From the IMG/VR virus record IMGVR_UViG_2875713109_000005: a stretch of DNA of 40,475 nucleotides. One strand, written 5' to 3'. A program made the translations under genes and the position numbers. The notes beneath the pieces are model-generated. The model ran no database searches and had not been told where the DNA came from. It saw only the letters and a program-made list of their open reading frames with translations. Origin of the DNA: a virus (Duplodnaviria; Heunggongvirae; Uroviricota; Caudoviricetes). Below are positions 11,823-32,460 of the stretch, one piece after another. Positions within the stretch are counted from its first letter, which is position 1; the number at the start of each line of letters is the position of its first letter.

Positions 11823-11881
11823 TCTTCACGCCGATCAGATTACATAATCCACGCGCCACCTGGACATTCAGGTAAAAAAGT

Positions 11882-12040: not shown

Positions 12041-12448
12041 GGGGGAAGATAGAGCAACTCACCGATGATGAATAAAGTGGACGAAGAGACGATAACTACA
12101 CTCCCATCCAGGGGGGGGGCTTTTTTTGTGGTACTGTAGTGTGGGAGTAAGTTCGGGTCTCATATTGAATGAGGCGATTGCGAGCTGCCTTTCATCGAAA
12201 ACTAATGTCCATTGTCATTGTATTGTCTGACTCTATCTCGTAACAAGTCTTTGACACAAAGTTTTATATTTTTATCAAAGTGGACATGAGGGGAATTAAA
12301 TTTGTGATCTTTTTCAAATAATGTGTTCTTGATAGTAGATTCTGGTTAGTGATATCTATTAACAATATATTAAATTTCTTTTGTATTATCGCTGATAAAA
12401 CTACTGTATTGGTATACTATATATTATTGAGTAACAGGAGATATCACT

Positions 12449-13951
12449 ATGAAGAAATTTTATCAATTTAGGGATGAACAGCGAAAGGAGCTTGAACAAC
12501 ATGATTTTTATAGTTTGATTTCTTCAGATTGTATAGCGTTGAAAGACAAACTATTATTTGCTCCTGTTATGGCTCATTTCATAATGAACTTCAGAGACAT
12601 GAATAAATGGGTTATCAGGTTTGATAACAATGATAATGAATATAAATCTGTTATAAACGGTGGAACAATCGAGGATGAAACACATTCAAGATTGTTTCTG
12701 GAAGACTGGAGGAAACTATATATAGATGACAAACTTAACTGGAAAGCAAGTGATGTTATATACTGGTTGTTTATTAGTCGAGAAATGGAGTGTTTCCGAA
12801 AATTTGGTATTGATTTTATGAGACTTTGTGTAGATGATGGAGGAGACCCAATACTTCGATATTCTCACTCCGAGTCAGGAGAAACTTGCGGTAATATATT
12901 CTTTTCAAGAATTAGTCCTATTGCTGATCAAGTTGCCAATCATTTGGGAATATCACTCCGTTATTTTGGAACATTTCACCTTAATCTTGAAAATGGACAT
13001 GTATGGAAGTCAGAAGGTGTTTTTGAAAATATAGAGTTGTCACCAGATTCTTATAAGAAAATGGCTACTCTATCAAAGAGAATGTTTGATATATTTGAAG
13101 GAATTCATGACTCTTTTTATAATTACCTGTCCAGTTATGTTCTTAATGGAAGTCATCCGTCATTTTTTGAATCATTACCTGTAGGGAAAAATGTTGCACC
13201 TATATACCCTGAATTTGTGATAGAAAACAAAAGCCATAACGATGGTAGACATATTGAACATATAAACAATTACCTGGAAAAAATATCGAGTCATGAGTTC
13301 TTTAAATGGCTGATTAACACCTCAATAGACCCTCAATTGAAATTGAAAAGTTTCATACCTCTTTGGATTGTTGATATTATGGGGTATAGAGATATTAATA
13401 AATATGTTTTTACATATGAACAGCCTGAATCAGAAAGTGAAAAGATTATAAATGATTATGCATTACACTTGTCAGAGCATAGCCGTTTATTTTATCATGA
13501 CTGGAAGTCACTTCAACTTGATGATATGTTACGTTGGAGTGCCAGTGATACTCTTGAGTTTATTTTTCTTAATTCAGATATGGATATGCATAGAGAAAAT
13601 ATAGTTAAGTTTTCTTTGTTCGGATTAAAACACAGAGATCCTGTTATCAGGTTCTGGTTTATGATGATACTGGAGTTAAGTGGAAAAGAATTTTTCTCTC
13701 ATGTTGGAGATATAGCTTTACAGGTGGAAAGTAAATATAATATTTATCTCCCATATTTATGTGGACGCCATGCAACAGAAAATGAGCATGAAGCATATAA
13801 TAATATGTATGAGCATTTTATGGTAAAGGAACTTAGCCCTGAACAAAGTGATCTAATAATACAAATTACAGACATGGTTATGCGGTCATTATTGAATAAT
13901 TTGGATATCTCATATCGATATGTAGTAAATAATTTATTGGCAGCTCGTTAG
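12449..13951 (+). CDS. Orphan 500-aa protein of unknown function with internal two-fold duplication
   Basis: Very AT-rich ORF with a GGAG-type RBS-like sequence upstream. Residues about 74-135 (THSRLFLEDWRKLYIDDKLNWKASD...) are repeated at about 340-400 (EHSRLFYHDWKSLQLDDMLRWSASD...). Terminator-like hairpin follows. Confidence 0.7.
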   Translation: MKKFYQFRDEQRKELEQHDFYSLISSDCIALKDKLLFAPVMAHFIMNFRDMNKWVIRFDNNDNEYKSVINGGTIEDETHSRLFLEDWRKLYIDDKLNWKASDVIYWLFISREMECFRKFGIDFMRLCVDDGGDPILRYSHSESGETCGNIFFSRISPIADQVANHLGISLRYFGTFHLNLENGHVWKSEGVFENIELSPDSYKKMATLSKRMFDIFEGIHDSFYNYLSSYVLNGSHPSFFESLPVGKNVAPIYPEFVIENKSHNDGRHIEHINNYLEKISSHEFFKWLINTSIDPQLKLKSFIPLWIVDIMGYRDINKYVFTYEQPESESEKIINDYALHLSEHSRLFYHDWKSLQLDDMLRWSASDTLEFIFLNSDMDMHRENIVKFSLFGLKHRDPVIRFWFMMILELSGKEFFSHVGDIALQVESKYNIYLPYLCGRHATENEHEAYNNMYEHFMVKELSPEQSDLIIQITDMVMRSLLNNLDISYRYVVNNLLAAR

Positions 13952-13984
13952 AAGAACAGCATTGGTATGACTCTGATGCTCCTT

Positions 13985-14015
13985 AAAATCCCACTTTTCA
14001 GAGTGGGATTTGTTT
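13985..14015 (+). terminator. Putative intrinsic terminator after the 500-aa orphan gene
   Basis: AATCCCACT-TTTCAG-AGTGGGATT stem-loop followed by TGTTT. Confidence 0.55.
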
Positions 14016-15068: not shown

Positions 15069-18000
15069 TTAAGCAACGTTTTCTGCCTCTGACGCCTCTT
15101 TTAATGGTCTCAGATGTCCTTTGGTCACCAGTTCTGCCAGCGTGAAGGAATAATGGCCGAGCATATTGATATGTCCGTGGCAAAGCGGGGAGAGGCGTGC
15201 GATATCTTCATCATTCAGTGTTTCACCCTGCGCCCGGAGATGATCCAGGGCTGCCTGCATATAAATAGTGTTCCATAACACGACGGCGTTAGTGACCAGC
15301 CCCAGTGTGCCCAGTTGATCTTCCTGACCGTCGGTATATCGTTTTCTTATCTCACCTTTTTGACCGTGACAGATGGCTCTGGCAACGGCATGGCGACTTT
15401 CTCCCCGATTAAGCTGGGTCAGAATGCGCCGGCGGTAATCTTCATCATCAATATAATTAAGCAGATACAGCGTTTTGTTGATGCGCCCCACTTCAATGAT
15501 TGCCTGAGTCAGTCCGGAAGGACGTTCACTTTTCAGCAATGAACGGACCAGCACTGAAACCTGTACTTTGCCCAGCTTCAGGGAGCCAGCGGTCCGGATC
15601 ATTTCGTCCCACTGAAGGACTATTTTTCGGGGATCTGATTGCCCTCTGGCAATATCATTCAGCACGCCATAGTCGGCATCATGGTCCATTCGCCAGAAAA
15701 CCGAAGCACCGGCATCAGCCAGGCGTGGAGAAAACTGGTATCCCAGCAGCCAGAAAAGGCCAAAGACAAGTTCGCTGGCACCTGCTGTATCGGTCATAAT
15801 TTCGGTTGGATTCAGCCCGGTCTCCTGTTCCAGAAGACCTTCCAGCACAAAGATAGAGTCCCTCAGCGTCCCCGGTATAACGATGCCATGAAAGCCGGAA
15901 TACTGATCGGACACAAAGTTGTACCAGGTGATCCCTCTGTTATTACCAAAGTATTTGCGGTTCGGTCCGGCATTGATTGTTCTGACTGGCGTAACAAAGC
16001 GCATTCCATCTGCAGATGCCACTTCTCCTCCACCCCATATCTGTGCCAGTGGCAGCGTTGCCTGAAAATCAACCAGTCTGGCATTAGCGCTGGTGATAGT
16101 TTCAGCCCGCAGATAGTTCGCTTTTGTCCAGTTCAGCCGGTGTCGGGTCAGTGCAGGAACATTTGATCTGATCAGTGGTTCCAGACCGATATTGCAGGCT
16201 TCAGCCATCAGCACGGCGCTGATGCTGACGGGCAGATCATCAACTCTGGCACTGGCTTCACTAGCATGGAAAAACTCATCAGCAAATCCGGTATGGGCGT
16301 TAATTTCGAGCAGCAACTCCGTTAAATCCACCGGAGGGAGTAGATCACTGATCATTTTGCTCAGTCGTTTCAGACTGTCCGGCTCATCAAGACTGGCGAG
16401 GGGAGAAATTGTCAACCGGGGCTTCGGGCCAGAAACATCGAGTTCGACAGCCTCATTTTCGCAAAGACGTGCAGCAACCTGTCTGTAACGACTATCAAGC
16501 TGATGACCCAGAGATTTTATTGCTTCCTGCGGGTCTGTCGGGTGCCCCAAAGAACGATAAACCTTAATCCGGTTTGCCTGCCAGTCAGCACCCTGTAGTA
16601 ATCTTGCACGAGGATCTCCCCACCGGTTACTGCCGGTAACGTAGACATCCCTCCGCCTCAGACTATCCTGCAGTTTACTGAGAAAGCAGAGCGTGTATCC
16701 CCTGCGGGTGATATGTTTTTCCTTGTTAATCACCAGCCGTTTCCATGACCGACTGATAATTTCCGTTGGTGCGTCGTCAAAAAACTGCCGCCGTGAGCTG
16801 AACTCCCGGCTGAGGTAGTCACAGGCATTCAGAGTGGTAACCCCGGCAGGTGCGGATGAAAATTTAACGGTATTCAGCAGATGGGGCAGGAAACGACGAA
16901 CGCGCCCGTACTGCTCCACCATTTCTTCATGAAAATTATCGTCTGAGGGCCGGGCAATTTCACGGACAAGCGTGATGATTTCAGCCAGCTTTTGCCTTGG
17001 GATGTAGCTGAACACCTCAGCACGAATCGATTCGTCCGGTGTTTCTTCTTTCAGCAGGTACGAACATGCGCTGGCGAGCGCCAATGCAGATTTATCCAGA
17101 TCCTTCAGCGAGCGGAGCCGTTTTTTCTGCCCAATCTTTCTGGCGTCACGGATGATAACGGCCAGCATGGCGTCCAGAACGTCCAATGCATCATCCAGCG
17201 CCAGCGTTTCCCATGCAAGGACAAAGGCAACCAGAACCGCCATCCTTTTCTGCGGTGACATCCTGGCAATATTGAACACCGAAGTCATACCAGCATAACG
17301 TGCGAGATTTTTCAGGCGCACAGCCGGGAGTGTACTCAGGTTTTCAGCATGCAGGCCAAAATCGTTCAGAGTTTTCCAGCGTTCAATTGCTTCATTAAAC
17401 GCCGGACCACTGATGGTCACAGGGCCCTTTTTCAGTGATTCCAGTAAAGACAGGCGGCTGCAATCAGTTGGCCCCAGCAGCATCTCCAGCTGTGAACGCT
17501 GTTCGGCTGACGGTATCAGTGCCAGTTTGTTCCACAGGCGCAACGTCGCCTTTTCCCTTACCTCTGAAATCAACCGGGTCAGCGTAGTGGCTCCGGGGAG
17601 AATAATACGATGTTGCATAAGCCACCCTGTCGCCAGATCGAAAAGCAGGCCAGGACGTTCGTTGCTTATCCAGCTCCGGGTATATAAAAGACGGGTAAGG
17701 CGAAATGTCCAGGGCCAGGCAAATTCACGATACTGATAGTGCTGACGTATCAGCGCTGCATGCTCACGGCGGGTATTTTCCCTCTGACCGTATTCTGCAA
17801 GAACGGTGATATCACGAATCCCGAGCTGTCTGGCGGTAAAATGCCGGACGCCGGAAGGAATATGATTCATATCGGTGAGGAAGGTGCCCAGAAAACGGAC
17901 ACATCCAATTTGCAGGGCAATGCCCAGACGGTTGTGATCACCTCTGCTTTTTCCGATAAATTCCTTGTCTGCTTCATCAAGGTGAAAATATCGTGCCAGC

Positions 18001-18074
18001 TGAAGCTCATCCGGTTCACCGGTGAATCTGCCATAGCTTTCAGTCTGCTCAGTGGTCAGAAAGTCAACGGGCAT
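15069..18074 (-). CDS. tnpA: Tn3-family transposase TnpA
   Basis: About 1001 aa starting MPVDFLTTEQTESYGRFTGEP (internal Met of the longer ORF in the track). Stop lies inside the terminal repeat. Confidence 0.9.
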   Translation of the reverse strand: MPVDFLTTEQTESYGRFTGEPDELQLARYFHLDEADKEFIGKSRGDHNRLGIALQIGCVRFLGTFLTDMNHIPSGVRHFTARQLGIRDITVLAEYGQRENTRREHAALIRQHYQYREFAWPWTFRLTRLLYTRSWISNERPGLLFDLATGWLMQHRIILPGATTLTRLISEVREKATLRLWNKLALIPSAEQRSQLEMLLGPTDCSRLSLLESLKKGPVTISGPAFNEAIERWKTLNDFGLHAENLSTLPAVRLKNLARYAGMTSVFNIARMSPQKRMAVLVAFVLAWETLALDDALDVLDAMLAVIIRDARKIGQKKRLRSLKDLDKSALALASACSYLLKEETPDESIRAEVFSYIPRQKLAEIITLVREIARPSDDNFHEEMVEQYGRVRRFLPHLLNTVKFSSAPAGVTTLNACDYLSREFSSRRQFFDDAPTEIISRSWKRLVINKEKHITRRGYTLCFLSKLQDSLRRRDVYVTGSNRWGDPRARLLQGADWQANRIKVYRSLGHPTDPQEAIKSLGHQLDSRYRQVAARLCENEAVELDVSGPKPRLTISPLASLDEPDSLKRLSKMISDLLPPVDLTELLLEINAHTGFADEFFHASEASARVDDLPVSISAVLMAEACNIGLEPLIRSNVPALTRHRLNWTKANYLRAETITSANARLVDFQATLPLAQIWGGGEVASADGMRFVTPVRTINAGPNRKYFGNNRGITWYNFVSDQYSGFHGIVIPGTLRDSIFVLEGLLEQETGLNPTEIMTDTAGASELVFGLFWLLGYQFSPRLADAGASVFWRMDHDADYGVLNDIARGQSDPRKIVLQWDEMIRTAGSLKLGKVQVSVLVRSLLKSERPSGLTQAIIEVGRINKTLYLLNYIDDEDYRRRILTQLNRGESRHAVARAICHGQKGEIRKRYTDGQEDQLGTLGLVTNAVVLWNTIYMQAALDHLRAQGETLNDEDIARLSPLCHGHINMLGHYSFTLAELVTKGHLRPLKEASEAENVA

Positions 18075-18795
<721 letters not shown>

Positions 18796-18907
18796 TACGC
18801 CTATTTTTATAGGTTAATGTCATGATAATAATGGTTTCTTAGACGTCAGGTGGCACTTTTCGGGGAAATGTGCGCGGAACCCCTATTTGTTTATTTTTCT
18901 AAATACA

Positions 18908-18936
18908 TTCAAATATGTATCCGCTCATGAGACAAT
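18908..18936 (+). promoter_or_regulatory. bla promoter (P3-type: -35 TTCAAA, -10 GACAAT)
   Basis: TTCAAA at 18908-18913 and GACAAT at 18931-18936 with 17-bp spacing, upstream of the bla start. Confidence 0.55.
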
Positions 18937-18965
18937 AACCCTGGTAAATGCTTCAATAATATTGA

Positions 18966-19838
<873 letters not shown>

Positions 19839-19985
19839 CTGTCAGACCAAGTTTACTCATATATACTTTAGATTGATTTAAAACTTCATTTTTAATTTAA
19901 AAGGATCTAGGTGAAGATCCTTTTTGATAATCTCATGACCAAAATCCCTTAACGTGAGTTTTCGTTCCACTGAGCGTCAGACCCC

Positions 19986-20602
19986 CTGAACAATGTGACG
20001 GACTCAGAAGCCTTCCCGGGTCTTATCCGGCAGACTCACAGAAAAATCAGGGCAGCATCGGCAGATGGCGCTTACGACACCCGGCTCTGTCACGATGAAC
20101 TGCGGCGTAAGAAAATCAGCGCCCTTATCCCACCCCGAAAAGGTGCGGGTTACTGGCCCGGTGAATATGCAGACCGTAACCGTGCAGTGGCTAATCAGCG
20201 AATGACCGGGAGTAATGCGCGGTGGAAATGGACAACAGATTACAACCGTCGCTCGATAGCGGAAACGGCGATGTACCGGGTGGGTTACTGGCCCGGTGAA
20301 TATGCAGACCGTAACCGTGCAGTGGCTAATCAGCGAATGACCGGGAGTAATGCGCGGTGGAAATGGACAACAGATTACAACCGTCGCTCGATAGCGGAAA
20401 CGGCGATGTACCGGGTAAAACAGCTGTTCGGAGGTTCACTGACACTGCGTGACTACGATGGTCAGGTTGCAGAGGCTATGGCCCTGGTACGAGCGCTGAA
20501 CAAAATGACGAAAGCAGGTATGCCTGAAAGCGTGCGTATTGCCTGAAAACACAACCCGCTACGGGGGAGACTTACCCGAAATCTGATTTATTCAACAAAG
20601 CC
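19986..20602 (+). mobile_element. IS903 3' fragment with terminal repeat, containing a 135-bp internal tandem duplication
   Basis: Starts inside the transposase gene directly after the Tn3 repeat and ends with the IS903 terminal repeat at 20602. Segment 20148-20282 is repeated at 20283-20417. Confidence 0.8.
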
Positions 20603-23175
20603 ACGGGAGACTCGCAGTTTGGACACTTTATGTTAATTGAAGACATAGGCATCAAAGACAAATAGGTCCAATACTCGCCATTCTTAATTAATCGTGTATT
20701 GCATGTACCACAGTGGGTATACACGGTAAAGTGTGTACACTCATTGCACCGATACCAACGCTTTTGATTATTTGAACTCATTGATTTCGTTACATCAACT
20801 ACTTTTTCAGACCCACAAGAAACACAAAAATTCACCGCATGAGTATCATCCGATGCTCCTCGAAAAGATGTATTGTCTTCAATGCCGTACTGTAGAAACA
20901 TCCCTAGCATACGTTGGATTTCATCAAGATAGCGTTGCGACTTCATTGGGTTTGCACATACTGCACCATAGTTTGTAGCTTGGCGTTGATGGCGTGCAGG
21001 TTCCCAATCAAACATGGATAGTTCGCCCAAATAACTGTCTTTCGCCCATTCCTGTGGAGAGACGACTTTCTCAACCGCATCTAACACGGGGTGAAGAACA
21101 AACACACTGTTCTCTTGGCATTCGCTATAATCTTTGCCGTTGTAAAGTTCATGGATAACCCCACCGATCCCACCTCTTTGCTTGAGATAGGCAGCAGAAT
21201 AGTACTTTGCATCGACGACTAACCGCTTTGAAATCTGGTTACCACTTTTGGTAATCGCTTCTACATCCAAAACAAAATCAGGGCGCTTACCATTTGCTAA
21301 GAACGGTTCGTATTGCAGAGTGATAGCTCTTGAAACACTTGGGTTGAAAAACTGAATGCTGATTTGTTCTTCATTGCCTTGAATATTCGCAATCAATTTT
21401 CGTTTCCAGTTGTCCTCTGGCTGATAGCGGAATGCCTGAGTCAGCACTTTGATGATTTGCAGCAAACACCAGCGTTCATAAAGTAGTGGCATGTTGACTA
21501 ACCCAATCGCTTCGATCTTCTCCAGCGAAAGCAAAATGTCCTCATCGGCCAAGCCAATCTGCTCTTTTAACTTTTTAAAACCCGAGTGAACCGCTTGATA
21601 GGCAGGGTTTTGCACAAAAGTCATAGAGTTAGGAAAGGTGCTTTTACTTTTGACTTTGCATTGACGCCATTCTTTTTCTATTTGCTGGAAAGGTTTCAGT
21701 TTTGGCTCAAGCGCTTTGTGTACGATTCCCACCTTTTCATGTTCAGTTGCGAAATAACCCAAGCGCTTATTGATGGTAGCACGTTCTTTTTCCTGTTCAG
21801 CGAGTTCATCTGTTGTCAGCTTCGCTTGCCAATCATTTTTACTTAGAGCAATGCCTTTATCACGCAATTTAGTGAAATTTTCTTGCTCTCTTTGAATAGA
21901 ACGAGACTCTGGTAATACGCAAATTCGTGAGATGTATTCTGGATACAAGACCACCGCTTTTCCCCTTCTTAACGGTAAAGGGATCTTCGCTTCTATCTCA
22001 TAGTCGCTATAAGCTTTAAACAAGCTGGCGTAATGATCTCTAGAATTAAAAATGGTATATCCATCTGGCTCAAACTGTTGCCAGTCATCATTTTGCGATA
22101 GTTTAATTTTAGCCCACCACTCATTCTCAGAGCCTGTTGCTTTTTCCAATCTTAGGTAACCTTTTTCAGAGTAACTTCGAGACAGATTAACGTTGATTTT
22201 CGCTAACTGTTCCGATAACTCGGCATTGATTACTTCTGTATCAAAGCGCTTTTTAAGTCGTTCTAAGTCTTTAACTACTAGGTCACGGTTGATAATACGA
22301 TAGTCTTTTAAACTGTCTAAACGCTCATTGAGCTTTTCAATAGCCCCAGAAAAACGACTCTTTTTGCTCTCAGCCACCTTAACCAATTGCTTTACAATGC
22401 TCAGCGTGCTCGAAACCACATACAGCACATACTGGTTTTCTGGCACGTTGTAACTCGGCTCAGATGCGCGGCTCGTTAAATGCTTACGCGAACCTTTGGT
22501 ACAAATCTCCATAAATGTACGTGGAACAGGACGTACTTCTTTTGCTGGCTTTAACGCTTGAATTTCTTTCAGTTCAACTTTGGGCTTTTTGAGGATGGTT
22601 TGTGCATTGCTAAGAATTGATGCGACTAATGACAGCGCTTCTTGGCCGATGGCTGCAACCTGTGAATTTTTAGCGTCGCCCGTGATATGACTATTCTCAT
22701 CGAGGATCAGCTCCCACAGGTCCGCTTTAAAATCTGACAGGTAACGTGAAAGATCCGATTTGGTCTGTTCGGAGATATCAATATCAAGCTTTAGTGTCGA
22801 GTTACCAATAACAAACGTGATCTGACCAGCCGTTCGCCTCGCTTCACTGCGCCACACCCGTTGTTTTGCGTCCCAATGAGCAGGCTCAACCCACCACACA
22901 GCATTAGATGCGGGATCGGTTATCGACTCTAACTGCTTTCTATCACCATTAGGCATGACAATGTAAGGCGGAGACTGATCACCCTGCTTAGTTTTTATCG
23001 CAAGTTGAGCAAAACGTAGCTCATCGACCTTAGGGTAGATGGTGGTGTGTGCGGAAAATGCATTGTTCCCCGTCTGCTCAAGCTTTAGCGAGTACTCCGA
23101 CTCGCTAACACTGACTAAGGTTTGCTTATCGTGCCATTTGGTCTCGATAAACTTGATAACGAATGGAGCTTCCAT
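20572..23175 (-). CDS. Large nuclease-like partner protein (867 aa as annotated): PD-(D/E)xK motif plus C-terminal CxxC zinc-ribbon cluster; 3' end replaced by IS903 sequence
   Basis: ATG lies 2 nt after the upstream ATPase stop. ...GKRPDFVLDVEAITKSGNQISKRLVVDAKYY gives PD (632-633) and D-A-K (655-657). Four CxxC pairs between 784 and 854. Central coiled-coil-like stretch. Last 9 codons and stop (20572-20602) come from the IS903 terminal repeat. Confidence 0.75.
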   Translation of the reverse strand: MEAPFVIKFIETKWHDKQTLVSVSESEYSLKLEQTGNNAFSAHTTIYPKVDELRFAQLAIKTKQGDQSPPYIVMPNGDRKQLESITDPASNAVWWVEPAHWDAKQRVWRSEARRTAGQITFVIGNSTLKLDIDISEQTKSDLSRYLSDFKADLWELILDENSHITGDAKNSQVAAIGQEALSLVASILSNAQTILKKPKVELKEIQALKPAKEVRPVPRTFMEICTKGSRKHLTSRASEPSYNVPENQYVLYVVSSTLSIVKQLVKVAESKKSRFSGAIEKLNERLDSLKDYRIINRDLVVKDLERLKKRFDTEVINAELSEQLAKINVNLSRSYSEKGYLRLEKATGSENEWWAKIKLSQNDDWQQFEPDGYTIFNSRDHYASLFKAYSDYEIEAKIPLPLRRGKAVVLYPEYISRICVLPESRSIQREQENFTKLRDKGIALSKNDWQAKLTTDELAEQEKERATINKRLGYFATEHEKVGIVHKALEPKLKPFQQIEKEWRQCKVKSKSTFPNSMTFVQNPAYQAVHSGFKKLKEQIGLADEDILLSLEKIEAIGLVNMPLLYERWCLLQIIKVLTQAFRYQPEDNWKRKLIANIQGNEEQISIQFFNPSVSRAITLQYEPFLANGKRPDFVLDVEAITKSGNQISKRLVVDAKYYSAAYLKQRGGIGGVIHELYNGKDYSECQENSVFVLHPVLDAVEKVVSPQEWAKDSYLGELSMFDWEPARHQRQATNYGAVCANPMKSQRYLDEIQRMLGMFLQYGIEDNTSFRGASDDTHAVNFCVSCGSEKVVDVTKSMSSNNQKRWYRCNECTHFTVYTHCGTCNTRLIKNGEYWTYLSLMPMSSINIKCPNCESPVALLNKSDFG

Positions 23176-23177
23176 GA

Positions 23178-25352
23178 TTACGCCCAGTAGTTCACAACGC
23201 CATCATTCGATTCAGCCGTTTTAACCAAACGCTCTACCGATTTGGTGCAAGAAAACTCCGCCGTTATCTCTGCTTGATTATCCAACAGCGACTCAAGGCG
23301 AGGCAAGAATACACGGCTAACAAGCTCAGCTTTACTGTAATCGCCTACTTGCTTATCACCATCAAATGTGAATTTTGGTAGCACCTTATGAACGATAAAG
23401 TTGTTGATGGCCAGAGACTTATTGTCGTTTACATCGCTAAACAAACTTACGTAGTTAAGCCCCTGTCGAATGGTACGCATACCAAACTCCACGCCAAGCG
23501 GATCAAAGACATCTCGGTTTAAGGTCGTAAACAACTCGCAGAATTCATTCGTACGTTCAAATTTCGGATAAGGGGTACGCTCACCAAGCTCTTCAATATC
23601 AAACACTAGCGGTAAAGTAACGTCGTCTAGCCCGTAAGAGTCAATCTCATCAAAAATCGCATCCCAGTCGGTCAGCAAAGGACTCTTAAACTTCATCACA
23701 TGCGCGCGGTCAAGAATTTTTGGTGAGAGGTAATGGGTTGTTTCGTCGATGTTGATAGCACCAATAATTCTTACGTTCGCTGGAATCGTGATTGACGAAG
23801 GCGTGCCGAGAACACCTGCCAACATGCGTCTGATATCACCGTGGTATTTAATCAGTGAGTCTTTATCGCTAAAGCCAAACGCGCGCTTCATTTCAGCGTT
23901 AATTTCTTCATCTTGCATGAGCGCAACGAAGTCCACGATGCCATTTTTGCTGAACTTTTCTTGCGCGTTAGAAATGACAGAAACAACCCCTTTTAGCTCG
24001 GCAAGAACGTGTGCAGCTTCATCATCCGAGTAAAGTTGAATGGTCGGTTGCTCGTTACGCTCCTCTAGCTTAGAAAGAAAGTCGGCAAAGTAATATTCCA
24101 CTCGGGCAAGGTTCATTTCGTCTAAACAGATGAAGTATGGGATATCTGGGTTTTGCTTAGCCTCGATCAATGCCTCAAGAAATGGTGTCACCAAATATTT
24201 CTTCTCTAGGGGATTGTAATAACCCAGCAAATCTTCTGAACTAGTCCAGTTAGGCTTGACCGGAATGATCTTCGATACCCCACCAATAGCCTTGGCAAAC
24301 GACTGAACCAGGTTTGTTTTGCCTGAGCCTGAGTCCCCCGCCAGAATGATGAGATCATGGGTGCGAATAAGCGTTAGGAAGTTCTCGATAATATGGCGCG
24401 GGTACAAGATATCTCGTTCTTTTAGGTGCGCTTGAATGTATGAAACGGCATCACTGTAGTTAGAATCAAAAGCTTGCGAAAAAGAGATATGCTCGTCACG
24501 ATCCTTATTAGACAAGGTGCTTCCAACAAAAAGGTCAAAATCGTCATCATCCAAAAACTCAAAGCTTTTTAGGAATCCAGCCTTACTTTCGACATAAGCT
24601 TTTAAGCGTTCAATTTTTTTAGACATTGTTTCTTCTGCCTTCTTTTGCAATGCGATTTTGTGTTGCCATTCAGAGTGTTCAACTTCCAGCTTTTGGGCTT
24701 TCGCAATTGCCTGAGAGAGAACGTTATTTTTTTGATTTAGGTCATCTTGGACATGTTGAAGCTGATCTTTATATGACGATATCTGAGCCTTCAATGAGGA
24801 TTCTTCGCGCTCAAATTCTGCGTTAAGTGCAGTCACTTCGCTGTCAATTCTTGATTGAACGTTCTGTAAATGCTGCTTGTAAACAGCTTCATCAAGGAAG
24901 ATGTTTTCATCACCTTTGATGATGTCATTCGCCGTATATTCAGGAAGTTTGATAAGTCGACGGACTGAACTTACTACCACATTGCATTCGAACGGGTTTT
25001 CATGTTTTTCGCGTTCAGATTGAGGCGCTAAAGCAAGCTCGCATGAGACAAAACTCCCATCTTCCAAGCCAAATAACTCTTCGACACTTTTGAAGGAAAC
25101 AAAAACACCTTTGTCCATCGTCAAACGAACATTAATGGGATATTCAGTATCCAGTCCCGTTTGGAGGGATTTAATCTCTAAAAGACGGGTTGGGAGCTTT
25201 CTGCTATCGGAATCTGGGCCATTTAGAATCTTGCCCCAAACTGCCAGTTTTCCATTCGTAATCCCCCAACTCTCACAAAGGCATTGATAAAGCTCTTCAT
25301 CAGAGAACCCTTTAACCTCTTCAAGATTGTAGATAACTTGTTCTAAGGCCAT
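23178..25352 (-). CDS. P-loop AAA+ NTPase, McrB/AAA_5-like, with N-terminal domain and coiled coil (724 aa)
   Basis: Walker A LAGDSGSGKT (338-346), Walker B FICLDEMNLA (407-416) with the DE-x-N pattern of AAA_5/McrB proteins, sensor-like RIIGAINIDETT (528-539). Heptad-rich region about 165-255. Confidence 0.8.
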   Translation of the reverse strand: MALEQVIYNLEEVKGFSDEELYQCLCESWGITNGKLAVWGKILNGPDSDSRKLPTRLLEIKSLQTGLDTEYPINVRLTMDKGVFVSFKSVEELFGLEDGSFVSCELALAPQSEREKHENPFECNVVVSSVRRLIKLPEYTANDIIKGDENIFLDEAVYKQHLQNVQSRIDSEVTALNAEFEREESSLKAQISSYKDQLQHVQDDLNQKNNVLSQAIAKAQKLEVEHSEWQHKIALQKKAEETMSKKIERLKAYVESKAGFLKSFEFLDDDDFDLFVGSTLSNKDRDEHISFSQAFDSNYSDAVSYIQAHLKERDILYPRHIIENFLTLIRTHDLIILAGDSGSGKTNLVQSFAKAIGGVSKIIPVKPNWTSSEDLLGYYNPLEKKYLVTPFLEALIEAKQNPDIPYFICLDEMNLARVEYYFADFLSKLEERNEQPTIQLYSDDEAAHVLAELKGVVSVISNAQEKFSKNGIVDFVALMQDEEINAEMKRAFGFSDKDSLIKYHGDIRRMLAGVLGTPSSITIPANVRIIGAINIDETTHYLSPKILDRAHVMKFKSPLLTDWDAIFDEIDSYGLDDVTLPLVFDIEELGERTPYPKFERTNEFCELFTTLNRDVFDPLGVEFGMRTIRQGLNYVSLFSDVNDNKSLAINNFIVHKVLPKFTFDGDKQVGDYSKAELVSRVFLPRLESLLDNQAEITAEFSCTKSVERLVKTAESNDGVVNYWA

Positions 25353-25599
25353 GATTTCTATTCAAAAAATAAATAAAGGGATTACCTAAGTGTTGCAAAC
25401 TCAACACATCTACATCTAGAGAAAAACAGGTTTAGCTTTGCTTCTTATCTAGCATTTTTTAGCGAGATAATCGCCAACGAGCATTTCAATAAATTCTTTA
25501 AGCTCCTGATATTAAACACCATAAGTCTAATATGGCAACAGTTTCTATAATCGCGTTTCGCGAATCCGTGTGACCTGCCCCCAGGATTAGATACAACCG

Positions 25600-26433
25600 T
25601 CAGTTAGTAAGGTCGGTTTGTTTACCTTCACATTTTCCATTTCGCCACCGTGCTGCAAACTCTGATGGCGTCTGATAATTCAGTGCTGAATGTGGACGAC
25701 ACTCGTTATAATCCTGCCGCCAGTCATTAATGATTTTCCTTGCGTGAACGATATCGCTGAACCAGTGCTCATTCAGGCATTCATCGCGAAATCGTCCGTT
25801 AAAGCTCTCAATAAATCCGTTCTGCGTTGGCTTGCCCGGCTGGATTAAGCGCAACTCAACACCATGCTCAAAGGCCCATTGATCCAGTGCACGGCAAGTG
25901 AACTCCGGCCCCTGGTCAGTTCTTATCGTCGCCGGATAGCCTCGAAACAGTGCAATGCTGTCCAGAATACGCGAGACCTGAACGCCTGAAATCCCAAAGG
26001 CAACAGTGACCGTCAGGCATTCCTTTGTGAAATCATCGACGCAGGTAAGACACTTGATCCTGCGACCGGTGGAAAGTGCGTCCATGACGAAATCCATCGA
26101 CCAGGTCAGATTGGGCGCCGCCGGACGGAGCAGCGGCAGACGTTCTGTTGCCAGCCCTTTACGACGTCTTCTGCGTTTTACGCCCAGGCCACTGAGGTGA
26201 TAAAGCCGGTACACGCGCTTATGATTAACATGAAGCCCTTCACGGCGCAGCAATTGCCAAATACGACGGTAGCCAAAACGCCTGCGCTCCAGTGCCAGCT
26301 CAGTGATGCGCCCTGATAAATGCGCATCAGCAGCCGGACGGTGAGCCTCATAGCGGCAGGTCGACAGGGACAAACCTGTAAGCCTGCAGGCACGACGTTG
26401 CGACAGACCGGTCGCATCACACATCAGCATCAC
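25600..26433 (-). CDS. IS3-family transposase OrfB (DDE/rve integrase domain), probably expressed as an OrfAB frameshift fusion
   Basis: Contains LTWSMDFV...[10 protein letters not shown]...[14 protein letters not shown] integrase-core residues. Overlaps the orfA frame. Confidence 0.8.
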
Positions 26434-26456
26434 GGCTTCCCGCTTCTGGTCTGTCG

Positions 26457-26720
26457 TCAGTACTTTCGCCCAAGAGCCACCTGAAGCGCCTCTTTATCCA
26501 GCATGGCTTCGGCAAGCAGCTTCTTGAGTCTGGCGTTCTCTTCCTCAAGCGACTTCAGGCGCTTAACTTCAGGCACCTCCATACCGCCATACTTCTTACG
26601 CCAGGTGTAAAACGTGGCATCGGAAATGGCATGCTTGCGGCAGAGTTCACGGGCGGGTACCCCAGCTTCGGCTTCGCGGAGAATACTGATGATCTGTTCG
26701 TCGGAAAAACGCTTCTTCAT
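26457..26720 (-). CDS. IS3-family transposase OrfA (HTH plus leucine zipper)
   Basis: 87 aa [46 protein letters not shown]... typical IS3-family OrfA, close to IS407-group OrfA as recalled. Confidence 0.8.
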
Positions 26721-26797
26721 GGGGATGTCCTCATGTGGCTTATGAAGACATTACTAACATCGGGGTGTACTAATCAACGGGGAGCAGGTCATAGTCT

Positions 26798-26873
26798 ATG
26801 GGCACACCACGTTTTACCCCTGAATTTAAGGAAGAAGCTGTCCGCCAAATCACCGAGCGGGGCTATTCCATCT
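26798..26873 (+). pseudogene. Possible 5' remnant of another IS3-family orfA, truncated by IS903
   Basis: Encodes MGTPRFTPEFKEEAVRQITERGYSI, resembling IS3-family OrfA N-termini. Cut off by the IS903 terminal repeat at 26874. Confidence 0.35.
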
Positions 26874-28260
26874 GGCTTTGTTGAATAAATCAGATTTCGG
26901 GTAAGTCTCCCCCGTAGCGGGTTGTGTTTTCAGGCAATACGCACGCTTTCAGGCATACCTGCTTTCGTCATTTTGTTCAGCGCTCGTACCAGGGCCATAG
27001 CCTCCGCAACCTGACCATCGTTACCCGGTACATCGCCGTTTCCGCTATCGAGCGACGGTTGTAATCTGTTGTCCATTTCCACCGCGCATTACTCCCGGTC
27101 ATTCGCTGATTAGCCACTGCACGGTTACGGTCTGCATATTCACCGGGCCAGTAACCCGCACCTTTTCGGGGAGGGATAAGNGCGCTGATTTTCTTACGCC
27201 GCAGTTCATCGTGACAGAGCCGGGTGTCGTAAGCGCCGTCTGCCGATGCTGCCCTGATTTTTCTGTGAGTCTGCCGGATAAGACCCGGGAAGGCTTCTGA
27301 GTCCGTCACATTGTTCAGCGACAGGTCTGCACAGATGATTTCATGTGTGTTGCTGTCAACTGCCAGATGCAACTTTCGCCATATACGACGGCGTTCCTGG
27401 CCATGCTTTTTGACTTTCCACTCGCCTTCACCAAAGACCTTCAGCCCGGTGGAATCAATCACCAGATGCGCGATTTCACCCCGGGTGAACGTTTTGAAAC
27501 TGACGTTAACCGACTTTGCCCGCCTGCTGACACAGCTGTAATCCGGGCANGATGATTTCATGTGTGTTGCTGTCAACTGCCAGATGCAACTTTCGCCATA
27601 TACGACGGCGTTCCTGGCCATGCTTTTTGACTTTCCACTCGCCTTCACCAAAGACCTTCAGCCCGGTGGAATCAATCACCAGATGCGCGATTTCACCCCG
27701 GGTGAACGTTTTGAAACTGACGTTAACCGACTTTGCCCGCCTGCTGACACAGCTGTAATCCGGGCAGCGNANCGGAACNTTCATCAGNGNAAAAATGGAA
27801 TCAATAAAGCCCTGCGCAGCGCGCAGGGTCAGCCTGAATACGCGTTTAATGACCAGCACAGTCGTGATGGCAAGGTCAGAATAGCGCTGGGGCCTTCCCC
27901 GTGATGAAGGCGTTGCCGACTCATACCAGGCCTGAATCGCCCCATCATCCAGCCAGAAAGTGAGGGAGCCACGGTTGATGAGAGCTTTGTTGTAGGTGGA
28001 CCAGTTGGTGATTCTGAACTTTTGCTTTGCCACGGAATGGTCTGTGTTGTCGGGAGGATGCGTGATCTGATCCTTCAACTCAGCAAAAGTTCGATTTATT
28101 NNNNNNNNNNNNNNNNNNNNNCGGTTGATGAGAGCTTTGTTGTAGGTGGACCAGTTGGTGATTCTGAACTTTTGCTTTGCCACGGAATGGTCTGTGTTGT
28201 CGGGAGGATGCGTGATCTGATCCTTCAACTCAGCAAAAGTTCGATTTATTCAACAAAGCC
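26874..28260 (-). mobile_element. IS903 copy, scrambled in this assembly (N runs and exact internal duplications)
   Basis: IS903 terminal repeats at 26874 and (reverse complement) ending 28260. Transposase reading frames present but interrupted by N at 27181, 27550, 27770-27790 and 28101-28121; segments duplicated (27343-27549 = 27560-27767; 27973-28100 = 28122-28250). About 1.39 kb versus about 1.06 kb for IS903. Confidence 0.75.
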
Positions 28261-28742
28261 CCAACCAATTAGCAATTCGCTTTTCGCATGTGCTAAAACA
28301 CCACTCTGGGTGTGCATCATTTAGCAATTCAGCCATTTTGCGTTTGGTCATCCCCCGCCCCTCATACCGTTGCCGAAGGACGCTAATCAATCCTGGATGC
28401 TCTGCCAGCACCTCACTTATGACCCGATCAATACATAACGCCTCTGCATCAGTACAATGCGCCAGCCAGCTCTTTTGCTTACCGTTAATCATATCCCGCA
28501 AAAAAGCCTCAAGTTCAGACTTGTTCAGACCTGCTTTTTTCATCCTCCGGAGCGCCTCGTTAATTGCCGTTTTTGTCAGCTTTTTAGAGGCCAACAACTG
28601 GTTGAACATATTCCCCGTCTTACCGCCGCCAATATACGACCAGCGCCCCCACATGCGCAGTTTTCCCTGAATCCAGACACTTTCCAGCGTGGTGAGACGA
28701 AGGTGTTCCCCGCTTTTGCCTGTATTTGTTGGGTAAATCATA
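28250..28742 (-). CDS. Putative late-gene regulator (antiterminator Q-like by position); 3' end abuts or is altered by IS903
   Basis: 164 aa from MIYPTNTGKSGEH...; start overlaps the upstream stop as ATGA. Lies directly downstream of nin-type genes where lambdoid phages encode Q. Last codons and stop fall in the IS903 terminal repeat. Family not confirmed. Confidence 0.4.
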
Positions 28743-29028
28743 AATAACCTTCCTTTCTCCAGATTTCTTGCGTGCGAAAAACACCTTCTGCATGCATCAG
28801 GCGTAAATCTTCTTTGGTGTAATCGCTTGTTTTTACCCGCCCGTCGATTAAATCGTGGCATGAGCTACAGGCAATCGCCGCCTGCATATCGTGTGGTTTT
28901 GTCGCTGTTCCGCACGTTCCCGCCAGTCGGTAATGCGCCAGCACAGACGTTTCCGGATCGTGATTGCAGTAGCCAAGAATTCTGACGGTGCACATCCGCC
29001 CCCGCGCCGCTTTACGTAAATCCACCAT
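28738..29028 (-). CDS. YbcO-like DUF1364 protein (putative phage nuclease, nin region)
   Basis: 96 aa MVDLRKAARGRMCTVRILGYCNHDPETSVLAHYRL...CSSCHD, cysteine/histidine-rich. Resembles DLP12 YbcO as recalled. Confidence 0.6.
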   Translation of the reverse strand: MVDLRKAARGRMCTVRILGYCNHDPETSVLAHYRLAGTCGTATKPHDMQAAIACSSCHDLIDGRVKTSDYTKEDLRLMHAEGVFRTQEIWRKEGYL

Positions 29029-29627
29029 TACGCAAACTCCAGCAGCTGCGCGGCCACATTTTCGACTTGTTCCGGAGAGGAAAATTTACGGAACAGAATC
29101 CAGTTCCACAGCACATTCAGAACAGATTTATAAACCTGCTGAAACTCGGTTTCGTCCATATTCGCAAAAGCGATAGATTTTGCCCGACGCCCGCGGCTAC
29201 CGTCCGGATAAAAATGTTCGGTGTAAAATCCAGCCTGAATGGTTACCCACTCGCGAAAAGCCTCAAACGACTTTAGCAATGCCGTATCCCGGGTTCTGCG
29301 TGTCGCAACTGTATTCAGATATTGCTCTGCGGCTTCGCTCAGAGCTGGCGTATGTTCCCGGCCTACTGATTCACATAGGTAATCAACGAATCCTGAAACC
29401 AGCTTTCGTTCGCGAGGCGTGATCGCCCCACCGACCGGAGTCCAGTAATCGAATCCCAGTTGCAGGAGTTTGAAAAAACGCTTGTGGAATGCGTAGTTAC
29501 GCACACGCTTAAAGTCTGCGTGTATCCACTCGCCTATTTTGATTTGATGCAAAAAATCGCAACTCTCCGGCGTCGCCGGGAGAAGTAGTCCAGAAGAGGT
29601 TTGTTTGACCAGTTGTATATGCGCCAT
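29028..29627 (-). CDS. Hypothetical nin-region phage protein (199 aa)
   Basis: ORF immediately upstream of and overlapping the YbcO-like gene. No motif recognised with certainty. Confidence 0.5.
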   Translation of the reverse strand: MAHIQLVKQTSSGLLLPATPESCDFLHQIKIGEWIHADFKRVRNYAFHKRFFKLLQLGFDYWTPVGGAITPRERKLVSGFVDYLCESVGREHTPALSEAAEQYLNTVATRRTRDTALLKSFEAFREWVTIQAGFYTEHFYPDGSRGRRAKSIAFANMDETEFQQVYKSVLNVLWNWILFRKFSSPEQVENVAAQLLEFA

Positions 29628-29905
29628 TTCTCAATCTCTCGATGGCGCAGTGCAGCAGATGCCAGTTGTTCAGGCTGACGAATAAAGTATAAATAAACTG
29701 GCTATGGTGTAAAGCTCCACATAACATGAACAAACACTACATATCAAATAGCTGATACAAGGATAGAAATACAACACTTATTATTAAAAACGATTAGATA
29801 AATTACATTTTAATGTTATGAAAAAGTTCTTTTTTATCATAACATTTCAACAAAAGCATTACAGATGCACATCCCGTCATCATCAATTATTTAAGGTGGT
29901 TAAAC

Positions 29906-29992
29906 ATGGAAAATAACAACTATGCACATCTCGCTCCTTTTTTATCCGTAATCCTTTTCGCTGGCTGTTTTATATGGGCATTATTTTTATAA
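29906..29992 (+). CDS. Possible small hydrophobic peptide (28 aa)
   Basis: AAGGTGG RBS-like sequence 8 nt upstream of the ATG. Encodes MENNNYAHLAPFLSVILFAGCFIWALFL (one TM helix). Within a long AT-rich intergenic stretch. Confidence 0.2.
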   Translation: MENNNYAHLAPFLSVILFAGCFIWALFL

Positions 29993-30494
29993 AGTAGCCG
30001 CATGATTAGTTTCTGGAATCATGTTTCCCACTCAAATCATTAACATTTGATAAGATATATCTAAAAGGATGCCTTTACATTATTTGATGCGTATATGATT
30101 TATTTATATGCACAGTAAAGGCATCCTGGAAATAATCAAGATTAATGATATATTGCTTATCTCATCCCCCACTGTCTTTCACCCGGAAAACATTTATCGT
30201 TAAAAATATATCATAAGTAATTAAATTGAAATTTCAGAACACAACTAATGCACACAATAAGATTCAGTAACAGTAATCTATGCGGACTATATCGAGATTT
30301 TTTAGTTAAACTTTAATAAGTTATTCCTAACACACAGAATGCACAAACTAAAAGTAAAACAAATAGTTATACGAAAAACAACCATATTGATTCTATCTTC
30401 TCCTCTAATCAACATATCAATTATGTGTTTCATAACAGCTTGACATAACCCTCAAAAAGGTGCATTTATAATGCATGTTTTATGGGAGGTGGTT

Positions 30495-30836
30495 ATGACA
30501 CACAAGAGAATTCCTAAAGACTGGGTAATCAAACGCTCAACTCCGTTCTTCACAAAAGAGAACGTACCTTCAGCGTTATTAACACATCATAATACAGCAG
30601 CAGGTGTTTTTGGACAGTTATGCGTGATGGAAGGTACTGTAACATATTATGGTTTTGCTGATGAGAATGCTACTGAACCGGAGATAAAAGTAGTCATTAA
30701 TGCTGGCGCTTTTGCAACAAGCCCACCACAATACTGGCACCGTGTTGAACTAAGCGATGATGCTCAGTTTAATATTAACTTTTGGGTAGCTCCAGACTTC
30801 TCAGGCGAAAAAGTCTATACCGCAAAAAAAGAATAG
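30495..30836 (+). CDS. YeaR-like DUF1971 protein (TehB-related domain)
   Basis: 113 aa from MTHKRIPKDWVIKRSTPFFTKENVP... with GGAGGTGG RBS. Resembles E. coli YeaR as recalled (RSTPF..., ...YYGFADENATEPE..., ...FNINFWVAP). Confidence 0.65.
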   Translation: MTHKRIPKDWVIKRSTPFFTKENVPSALLTHHNTAAGVFGQLCVMEGTVTYYGFADENATEPEIKVVINAGAFATSPPQYWHRVELSDDAQFNINFWVAPDFSGEKVYTAKKE

Positions 30837-30918
30837 CCACGCTATAAATATCTTATTAACTAGTCCCGGCGTGGTTCTTTCCCCGCTGGGTCTTTTACTC
30901 AGATTAGTAGTCTACGAA

Positions 30919-31044
30919 TCAGAGCCTCCGTCTGCCAGTTCGGATTCGTACCTCGCAGAGGTCTTTCCTCGTTACCAGTGCCGTCACTATGACGGTTAAA
31001 CAGATGACGATCAGGGCGATTAACATCGCCTTTTGCTGCTTCAT
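30919..31044 (-). CDS. Hok/Gef-family type I toxin with altered C-terminus (41 aa as encoded)
   Basis: MKQQKAMLIALIVICLTVIVTALVTRKDLCEVRIRTG matches the HokD/RelF-type N-terminus and TM helix by recall, then reads RRRL-stop instead of QTEVAVFTAYEPEE. Overlapping mok-like frame upstream. Confidence 0.55.
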   Translation of the reverse strand: MKQQKAMLIALIVICLTVIVTALVTRKDLCEVRIRTGRRRL

Positions 31045-31566
31045 AGCCTGCTTCTCCTTGACCTTTCGGTCCGTAAGAGGCTAATCTCTATGTGTCGCAT
31101 AGATATGGCCTCAGATTAATGTTAAACGTCTTGCAGGACGCGTAATGTTAACTGGGGCTTTTCTCTATCTACCTTTGGTGTTCATGCCCGAGGCAGATAG
31201 CCTCAAGCACCCACAGCAATTCTAACTATCCAATACATCACTGCCAACACTTTAAACTCTTACCCTTTAAAACAAGAACAAAATTCAACCAATCAGCATT
31301 GGGCGTATACTCATATCCTAGAGAAAACAACTCTTTCTGTACCATTTATATCCATATGATTTATAAGCATTTGCCACTTGCCATAGCCGCACAATGACAG
31401 TTTGCCATTTGATGTCAATAGATAAAAATGATCGTTTTCAATGAGTTACATACTTGCAAGGCGTTGCACATCAGGCCCGATTACGTCAGTATCAAAAGAT
31501 TACAGATGGTGCATTACTGCCACCTCGCCTTAATGTTCCAGAACTCTCCAACTTGAGGAATTTTCA

Positions 31567-32340
31567 ATGACATCCTTTCAATTATCTTTGATTTCTCGTG
31601 AAATTGACGGCGAAATAATACATTTACGTGCCAAAGATGGTTACATAAACGCCACATCAATGTGTAGAACTGCGGGCAAACTGCTCTCTGATTACACTAG
31701 ACTCAAAACTACTCAAGAGTTTTTTGACGAATTATCACGCGATATGGGAATTCCCATATCGGAGTTAATTCAATCATTTAAAGGTGGAAGACCTGAAAAC
31801 CAAGGGACATGGGTGCATCCTGACATCGCTATTAATCTAGCGCAGTGGCTATCGCCCAAATTTGCAGTCCAGGTTTCAAGATGGGTTCGTGAATGGATGT
31901 CAGGGGAAAGAACTACAGCAGAAATGCCTGTACATTTAAAACGGTACATGGTTAATCGTAGTAGAATTCCTCACACGCACTTTTCTATTCTTAATGAACT
32001 GACATTCAACTTGGTTGCACCTCTTGAACAAGCAGGGTACACACTCCCAGAAAAAATGGTTCCTGACATTTCACAAGGAAGAGTATTTTCACAATGGTTA
32101 AGAGATAATAGAAACGTAGAACCCAAAACATTCCCTACCTATGACCATGAATATCCCGATGGTCGCGTATACCCTGCAAGGCTGTACCCAAATGAATATT
32201 TAGCAGATTTCAAAGAACATTTTAACAATGTTTGGTTGCCGCAATATGCCCCGAAATACTTCGCTGACCGGGACAAAAAGGCTCTCGCCTTGATTGAAAA
32301 AATTATGCTACCTAACCTCGATGGCAATGAACAGTTCTAA
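31567..32340 (+). CDS. KilA-N domain protein
   Basis: N-terminal region (IDGEIIHLRAKDGYINATSMCRTAGKLLSDYTRLKTTQEF) has the KilA-N/APSES-type signature common in lambdoid prophages. Confidence 0.65.
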   Translation: MTSFQLSLISREIDGEIIHLRAKDGYINATSMCRTAGKLLSDYTRLKTTQEFFDELSRDMGIPISELIQSFKGGRPENQGTWVHPDIAINLAQWLSPKFAVQVSRWVREWMSGERTTAEMPVHLKRYMVNRSRIPHTHFSILNELTFNLVAPLEQAGYTLPEKMVPDISQGRVFSQWLRDNRNVEPKTFPTYDHEYPDGRVYPARLYPNEYLADFKEHFNNVWLPQYAPKYFADRDKKALALIEKIMLPNLDGNEQF

Positions 32341-32460
32341 ATGATTAGCCAGCCCCATAAGGGCTGGTTATTTAGTATTATCAACCCCAGCGGCAAATCG
32401 AATACACCACCAGCGCCACCGCCATCGCAATTCCTACCGTTGTGAATGCTTCAGGCCAGG

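Follow-up and report, generated by a model that had tools for sequence, protein, structure and literature searches.

Background

Coiled-coil nuclease tandems (CoCoNuTs) were defined in a census of McrBC systems by Bell, Sahakyan, Makarova, Wolf & Koonin (eLife 2024, PMC11090510). Type I-A, as these authors define it, consists of cnuB and cnuC only, with an NxD signature in place of NxxD, usually followed by E or D (PMC11090510). The CnuB NTPase of this type has a helical insert between Walker B and NxD, which distinguishes it from all other types, and CnuB also carries an N-terminal OB-type (CSD-like) module and a coiled coil; the order in CnuC is Ig, DUF2357, a coiled coil-CSD-coiled coil ('CoCo-CSD-CoCo') part, a PD-DxK nuclease and a zinc ribbon (PMC11090510). 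Here we analyse a two-gene operon on the minus strand of a 40,475-nt stretch of DNA filed as viral (Caudoviricetes; IMG/VR record IMGVR_UViG_2875713109_000005), the whole of which is called 'the window' below. The operon is in all likelihood a cnuB-cnuC pair of Type I-A, on the NxD branch of the McrBC-type Type IV restriction systems. The system is thus one that is already known: it was named and catalogued in 2024 by Bell et al., and it is the PADLOC candidate PDC-M26.

The McrBC system of E. coli K-12 shares with the operon the AAA+ NTPase lineage, alignable from Walker A to Walker B, a PD-(D/E)xK partner with a D-A-K motif, and an arrangement in adjacent, tightly spaced genes. The signature of K-12 McrB, however, is NTAD where CnuB has NxD, and about 69 fewer residues separate it from Walker B. 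McrB has a 5-methylcytosine-reading domain, whereas CnuB of the window has a coiled coil and a beta-rich module instead, and McrC has 348 amino acids (aa), whereas CnuC, with 858 aa natively, has Ig, OB, coiled-coil and zinc-ribbon parts in addition. The Type II CoCoNuT known as the 'Obs' locus (P. aeruginosa PMM16) shares with the window the NxD/coiled-coil CnuB-CnuC core, but it has seven genes, including helicase and HEPN partners, against two genes with an intact nuclease in the window; according to Bell et al., the CnuC nuclease of Type II is degenerate (PMC11090510). This Type II locus protects P. aeruginosa from PP7 and LeviOr01, which are RNA phages, and from the DNA phage MPK7 (bioRxiv 10.64898/2026.04.06.716636), and the Obs locus was the only CoCoNuT with a reported phenotype found in our literature search.

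Assignment of the operon

The two genes are open reading frames (ORFs) at 23178..25352 (cnuB, 724 aa) and 20572..23175 (cnuC, 867 aa in this copy), joined by the sequence TAA-tc-ATG, that is, with a 2-nt spacer from which translational coupling may be deduced. A preliminary description of the window, made from its letters alone, had reported this minus-strand pair with these sizes and this spacing, together with codons of motif residues in both genes, and all of them were located at those positions. The operon is also richer in A+T than its surroundings and bracketed by insertion sequences (IS), as had been noted: its G+C content is 0.42 to 0.45, compared to 0.47 to 0.54 in the flanks, and IS903 and an IS3-family element lie at its ends.

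Both proteins match the models of one catalogued system from end to end. In PADLOC-DB, PDC-M26A and PDC-M26B gave 1107 and 1428 bits, respectively (E = 0), over the full length of the two adjacent proteins. The Type I-A sheet of Supplementary file 3 of Bell et al. contains the CnuB variant of the window, including F16 and C24; the N-terminal 400 aa are identical in, for example, S. enterica EAO0193670.1, and near-identical, matching CnuC sequences stand in the same sheet. The preliminary description had taken the pair for a McrBC-related candidate of CoCoNuT type, which Pfam, PADLOC and the listing of Bell et al. bear out. It had also held that no named family could be assigned, a statement that no longer stands, as the PDC-M26 models and the Type I-A sheet name both proteins.

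Compared to the published Type I-A systems, the operon has the same two genes, the same domain orders in CnuB and CnuC and the same NxD NTPase with its insert. It differs from them in the 9-aa IS903-encoded tail of CnuC and in being an IS-bounded block, and the allelic cassette exchange described below is absent from the paper. The PDC-M26 models bear the label 'phage defence candidate', and a literature search for 'PDC-M26' found no mention of it.

In keeping with the two-gene composition of Type I-A, no CnuH helicase, CnuE or CnuA is found beside cnuB-cnuC in the window, where the flanks are IS elements. Among 70 loci with full-length cnuC, each from a different species, cnuC follows cnuB at a distance of -13 to +13 nt in 68, and no neighbour family is present at more than 7 of the 70. 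We conclude that the pair is autonomous, without a conserved third gene. At 7 of the 70 loci, a protein of about 680 aa is encoded directly downstream of cnuC (for example, L045:14910-16955); it had no match in Pfam or PADLOC, and may be a clade-specific third component.

Domains of CnuB

In alignments of 36 CnuB and 32 CnuC homologs, reaching down to 55% and 37% identity, respectively, the motif residues of both proteins are invariant or nearly so, which argues that they are not chance matches. In CnuB, the Walker A motif GDSGSGKT (residues 339-346, 24315..24338, minus strand, as are all features of the operon; K345 is codon 24318-24320) is invariant over the 36 sequences at seven of its eight positions, and D340 is nearly so. 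Walker B, ICLDEMN, occupies residues 408-414 (24111..24131). The signature N534-I-D536-E537 (23742..23753), within the stretch GAINIDE at residues 531-537, replaces the NxxD of McrB; it is invariant in all 36 homologs, and N-x-D stands at the same position in 80 of 80 loci from different species.

Pfam assigns AAA_5 to the protein and NCBIfam gives a weak match to McrB (E 0.0045). By hhalign, the CnuB alignment matches K-12 McrB with a probability of 87.8% (E 3e-6) over 115 columns, from Walker A to Walker B. The helical insert that sets Type I-A apart is found in CnuB of the window at residues 417-525 (23778..24104). The AlphaFold model (pLDDT 75.8) places helices 443-516 within the AAA+ core, between Walker B and NxD. 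D411 and N534 lie 123 residues apart, compared to 54 for D279-N333 of K-12 McrB, and at 71 of 72 loci the two motifs keep a spacing of exactly 116 residues.

The N-terminal part of CnuB is of another kind. Residues 1-135 (24948..25352) are modelled as a beta-rich domain with strands at 36-43, 56-62, 101-108 and 123-135; this domain, the variable 'cassette 1' of the following sections, is 26 to 40% identical in distant homologs, compared to 79 to 91% for the NTPase core. It is followed by a predicted coiled-coil stalk at residues 155-263 (24564..24890), modelled as a single 109-residue helix, in which heptad periodicity is strong (z 4.8, with none of 500 shuffles reaching the real score). CnuB thus has the long N-terminal coiled coil of Type I-A, and the N-terminal domain, coiled coil and McrB/AAA_5 core read from the letters in the preliminary description agree with the model, the heptad test and Pfam.

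Domains of CnuC

CnuC was modelled with a pLDDT of 80 and a pTM of 0.74. Its first domain (residues 1-134, 22774..23175) is predicted to be an all-beta, Ig-like sandwich, for which Foldseek returned complement MG and Ig domains at a probability of up to 0.99. It is followed by the DUF2357 helical bundle, delimited by Pfam, alignment and model, in two parts, at residues 139-296 (22288..22761) and 518-581 (21433..21624; alignment and model). Between these halves, at residues 297-505 (21661..22287), lies an insertion with the coiled coil-OB-coiled coil layout of Type I-A. The model gives a helix at 297-330, an OB barrel at 337-420 (21916-22167) and helices at 425-505. This insertion, the variable 'cassette 2', is the least conserved part of CnuC, and its barrel resembles the OB folds of Teb1 (OB-B, 0.95) and Stn1-Ten1 (0.82) according to Foldseek. 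A coiled-coil stretch had been announced for this protein; with 500 shuffles, it is retained for residues 245-330 (z 3.4), and not for 425-505, where the periodicity is not significant (z 1.3).

Within the N-terminal half of DUF2357, the segment 198-247 (window about 22435-22584) contains the invariant residues P216, V217, R219, T220-E223, L233-R236 and E246-N247. Residues 210-237 nevertheless have a pLDDT below 50 in the monomer model.

The PD-(D/E)xK nuclease occupies residues 590-765 (20881..21408), modelled as an alpha/beta nuclease core. Its catalytic set is intact: E623, P632-D633 and D655-A-K657 are invariant, with PDF at 632 and DAKYY at 655 (D655 is codon 21211-21213 and K657 codon 21205-21207), and VDAKYY aligns with D257-A-K259 of K-12 McrC. 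The C-terminal zinc ribbons (residues 784-854, 20614..20826), identified by alignment, by the model and by weak Pfam zinc-ribbon matches, contain four CxxC pairs, at 784, 810, 822 and 851, and residues 780-858 are modelled as cysteine-bearing beta-hairpins. C784, C787, C810, C813 and C822 are invariant, C851 and C854 are conserved at 90% or more, and three to four CxxC pairs are present in CnuC at 67 of the 70 loci.

Pfam scores were 32.5 bits for PDDEXK_7 (cut-off 22.1) and 18.1 bits for DUF2357, which is below its cut-off of 23.3. Whole-chain Foldseek matches were weak but domain-resolved, and included the McrC chains 6ut7_G (probability 0.87) and 6ut6_G. Foldseek and PADLOC, which the preliminary description had proposed as checks, have together with Pfam yielded AAA_5, PDDEXK_7, a sub-threshold DUF2357, McrC fold matches and PDC-M26A/B. 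Its picture of gene B (cnuC) as a PD-(D/E)xK protein with four CxxC pairs, far larger than McrC, holds with 858 aa natively against 348 aa.

Exchange of two cassettes between alleles

Sequence conservation along both proteins is uneven. In the Klebsiella CnuB cluster, which comprises 738 sequences, the NTPase is 97 to 100% identical to that of the window, the N-domain 39% and the coiled coil 26%. Similarly, some CnuC homologs are 93 to 100% identical in the Ig, DUF2357 and nuclease parts, and 32% identical in the OB insert. Across 70 distant loci, identity within the cassettes is 20 to 35%, that is, saturated.

Breakpoints were located by a nucleotide alignment of three plasmid alleles: that of the window, L086:5997-11001 (K. 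pneumoniae) and L087:5997-11007 (S. enterica). In the window, the swapped regions are 24560-25300 (cnuB codons about 18-260) and 21670-22210 (cnuC codons about 324-500). The K. pneumoniae allele is 29 to 67% identical to the window in the cnuB region and 98 to 100% in the cnuC region; the remainder, including the upstream region, is mostly at 96 to 100%, with the Ig region of cnuC at 86 to 93%. The S. enterica allele is 29 to 67% identical in the cnuB region and 61 to 82% in the cnuC region, with the rest mostly at 96 to 100%. Its cnuB cassette is the same as that of the K. pneumoniae allele, and cnuC residues 297-505 are those replaced in it.

As one allele differs from the window by the cnuB cassette only and the other by both, the two cassettes are exchanged independently, and the alignment places the borders sharply, at domain boundaries. 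The pattern fits diversifying selection on target recognition, and independent swaps argue against a strict pairwise fit between the coiled coils of CnuB and CnuC. The text of Bell et al. (PMC11090510) does not mention recombination or cassette swapping.

State of the window copy

On its 3' side, cnuC is bounded by a partial IS903 copy (19995..20602, from ORF and similarity searches), the inverted repeat of which starts at 20602/20601, directly after the V858 codon. The native protein ends in CESPV at 858 aa, as in the intact Klebsiella copy of NZ_CP061390.1. The preliminary description had regarded gene B as truncated by IS903; what is found instead is that the stop codon has been replaced, and that IS903 encodes a 9-aa extension, ALLNKSDFG, with a new stop (20572..20601), after the full 858 aa. 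The zinc ribbon is complete despite the junction.

On the 5' side, 218 nt of native DNA (25353..25570) are retained before an IS3-family element (25571..26850, the far end being approximate), recognised by orfA/orfB and a frameshift element; IS1222_FSE at 26373-26490 was the sole Rfam match. A weak sigma-70-like match lies at 25538..25509, and in a promoter and terminator scan, matches did not exceed the shuffled expectation. The 218 nt are 94 to 100% identical in three other copies compared, which suggests that they hold the promoter. With intact ORFs, catalytic residues and native upstream DNA, and with the 9-aa tail of CnuC as the only change, this copy looks functional.

Within the transposase fragment of the partial IS903 (19995-20546, plus strand), a stretch of 45 residues (GYWPGEYADRNRAV...AETAMYRV) stands twice in exact tandem, which could be an assembly artefact or a real duplication.

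Genomic setting

The preliminary description had placed the operon in the cargo of a prophage, and this could not be established. The block composed of IS903, cnuC, cnuB and IS3, with the 867-aa allele WP_032494871.1, is found at about 100% identity on E. coli, Salmonella and Citrobacter plasmids. The module without IS elements is present in 256 of 72,556 plasmid records, of which 187 are from Klebsiella, and in 40 of 5,426 complete E. coli genomes, where 37 places are on plasmids and 5 are chromosomal. In all complete records examined, the module was plasmid-borne or within an integrated plasmid. Phage records match only the IS903 end of the block, and a PHROGs search gave no meaningful phage family. 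We conclude that the cnuBC module is plasmid cargo.

The right part of the window (28261-40475) matches the chromosomal region of the Rac prophage at 100% identity. The two parts are, however, joined across a run of 21 N at 28101-28121 (a second such run lies at 2298-2318); about 130 nt of the IS903 end are repeated on both sides of this gap, and the IS end abuts Rac DNA at 28260/28261. Because the gap lies within the repeated IS903 end, the junction of the mosaic with Rac is a scaffold join across a repeat and the linkage is uncertain.

Positions 1-14000 contain sitABCD, encoding an iron/manganese transporter, at 99.8 to 99.9% identity to F-type E. coli plasmids, so that the left part of the window is also plasmid-like. 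An ORF for a 286-aa class A beta-lactamase (18978-19838, plus strand) adjoins the IS903 fragment; for the equivalent block of E. coli D4, the annotation is TEM-1. In that strain, the chromosomal stretch NZ_CP010143.1 4729439-4774406 (L084) is an integrated IncR-type plasmid (repA, parAB) with two inverted copies of IS903-cnuC-cnuB and duplicated tet(B) regions.

Recurrent neighbours of cnuBC are Type I restriction-modification (R-M) subunits, PglZ and BrxL of BREX, integrases and a DEDDh exonuclease. On K. pneumoniae pCRE-195-1 (L001), a complete type I Zorya system (zorABCD, 15586-22968) is separated from an intact cnuBC by one IS903; the two make up a small defence island on an IncFIB plasmid. 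Settings of this kind usually mark a self-contained mobile defence cassette.

Proposed mechanism and alternative explanations

By analogy with the solved McrBC complexes 6ut6 and 6hz4, CnuB would form hexamers in the NTP-bound state, and a conserved segment of CnuC would dock in the pore of the ring and stimulate hydrolysis, as in McrBC; residues 198-247 are a candidate for this docking element, which might fold on entry into the ring. Hydrolysis would then couple target engagement to cleavage at the PD-(D/E)xK site of CnuC. Judging by domain content and by the allelic swaps, the two OB/coiled-coil modules are most likely the target sensors, with an invader's single-stranded nucleic acid as the probable substrate. 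For CoCoNuTs, Bell et al. argue in favour of RNA targets (PMC11090510). From the nearest OB folds of the CnuC model, single-stranded DNA (ssDNA) is a possible target as well. We tentatively put forward a more specific proposal, to which we give rather less than an even chance: that the OB-on-coiled-coil modules are independently exchangeable specificity cassettes on a motor/nuclease chassis, such that different alleles sense different invader nucleic acid, possibly ssDNA or RNA.

Several results weigh against parts of the reading as a nucleic acid-targeting Type I-A system. The OB fold of CnuC resembles ssDNA binders of the RPA and telomere type as much as others, which does not favour RNA in particular. 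Neither the N-domain of CnuB nor the OB insert of CnuC showed any similarity by hhalign to CspA or to the other, so that sequence profiles give no support to the CSD-like label. The CnuC alignment matched K-12 McrC at 14% (E 0.002) over 44 columns, around the VDAKYY motif only, and profile searches of both alignments against PDB sequences did not reach McrB or McrC. Our literature search found no experiments on any Type I-A CoCoNuT, so that defence, nucleotide, oligomer and substrate are all deduced. Finally, how active the window copy is, or how well it is expressed, could be altered by its 9-aa tail and by the IS3 element lying 218 nt upstream. In the PDB profile searches, ketol-acid reductoisomerase (E 1e-4, over the Walker A/B segment and the flank upstream of it) and the marginal POP8 and Med4 were treated as chance matches.

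What else the two proteins might be can be judged from the same comparisons. The preliminary description had itself raised a MoxR chaperone pair, that is, an AAA+ chaperone of MoxR/RavA type accompanied by a cofactor protein. Foldseek matches of CnuB do include RavA, next to dynein, MCM and NorQ, but the fold search alone is not decisive: McrB, MoxR and the proteins matched belong to the same AAA+ clade, which accounts for the matches to RavA-type proteins. Profile comparison separates them, with 1.0% for K-12 RavA (E 0.05, 42 columns, P-loop only) against the 87.8% for McrB, and with 0.1% for CnuC against ViaA, the VWA partner of RavA (E 0.43, 25 columns); Pfam reports AAA_5 rather than the MoxR family, and a DUF2357/PDDEXK_7 nuclease rather than a VWA/MIDAS partner. 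The chaperone pair was thus rejected, and its likelihood is next to nil. Scarcely more credible is the notion that gene B is the pyrethroid-hydrolysing esterase EstP and the pair metabolic. Annotations in NCBI, UniRef and JGI and those of Prokka type do call homologs of gene B (P0007, P0031, P0088, P0218 and others) 'EstP' or 'pyrethroid hydrolase', and the name comes from a 73-kDa esterase EstP of Klebsiella sp. ZD112, which reviews cite as reported by Wu et al. in 2006. CnuC, however, has no hydrolase or esterase family by Pfam or NCBIfam and no GxSxG or GDS motif; its model consists of Ig, helical bundle, OB, PD-(D/E)xK and zinc-ribbon parts without an alpha/beta-hydrolase fold, and its gene is coupled to a McrB-like NTPase at 70 of the 70 loci. 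The name is probably a propagated misannotation. That the pair is a Type I-A CoCoNuT of which this copy is an inactive remnant, through the IS903 read-through tail or the upstream IS3 insertion, deserves more attention and still seems unlikely: nine residues directly follow the last zinc-ribbon cysteines in place of the stop codon, and only 218 nt of native upstream DNA remain, with a promoter match not beyond chance, but the 867-aa allele and its IS-bounded block, undisrupted and about 100% identical, are present in replicons of E. coli, Salmonella and Citrobacter, the block occurs twice in strain D4, and the 218 nt are conserved in the other copies.

As to function, the strongest competitor of single-strand sensing, although itself rather improbable, is classical McrBC-style restriction of modified double-stranded DNA, in which the OB and coiled-coil parts would be structural or regulatory only. 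It would suit the intact catalytic residues, the alignment of DAKYY with the K-12 McrC motif, the close relation to the McrB lineage and the frequent proximity of Type I R-M genes, which K-12 mcrBC also adjoins. The operon does combine, as McrBC does, a McrB-lineage AAA+ NTPase with a DUF2357 and PD-(D/E)xK McrC homolog. A canonical McrBC, on the other hand, would have NxxD and a reader of modified DNA, whereas Pfam detects no known modified-base reader, and a beta-rich module on a long stalk takes the place of the N-terminal reader; the NxD variant and the partner architecture are unlike those of characterised enzymes, and OB folds usually bind single strands. Given the NxD signature and the lack of a detected reader domain, we regard the system as a derived branch rather than canonical McrBC. 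A function in competition between elements or in plasmid maintenance, directed at conjugative ssDNA or rival plasmids instead of phages, appears less probable still as the main role on enterobacterial plasmids. The counts on plasmids given above (256 records, and 37 of 42 places in E. coli), the vapBC or relBE toxin-antitoxin genes nearby, the likeness of the OB insert to ssDNA-binding folds and cassette swaps consistent with an arms race between elements all lend it some weight. In most other species, however, the module is chromosomal, beside R-M and BREX genes and integrases, the usual context of anti-phage islands, and the Type II relative that has been tested acts on phages.

Conclusions

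A published name, Type I-A CoCoNuT or PDC-M26, is available for the operon of the window, and the name 'pyrethroid hydrolase' on many records of its nuclease finds no support in sequence or model. If the OB/coiled-coil modules are indeed exchangeable specificity cassettes, this would be a modular sensor design undescribed for McrBC-type enzymes, and the three natural alleles are ready material for an experiment on how the NxD branch of McrBC recognises its targets. In Klebsiella, E. coli and Salmonella, the module is carried by multidrug-resistance and virulence plasmids, so that it could influence phage therapy or plasmid spread.

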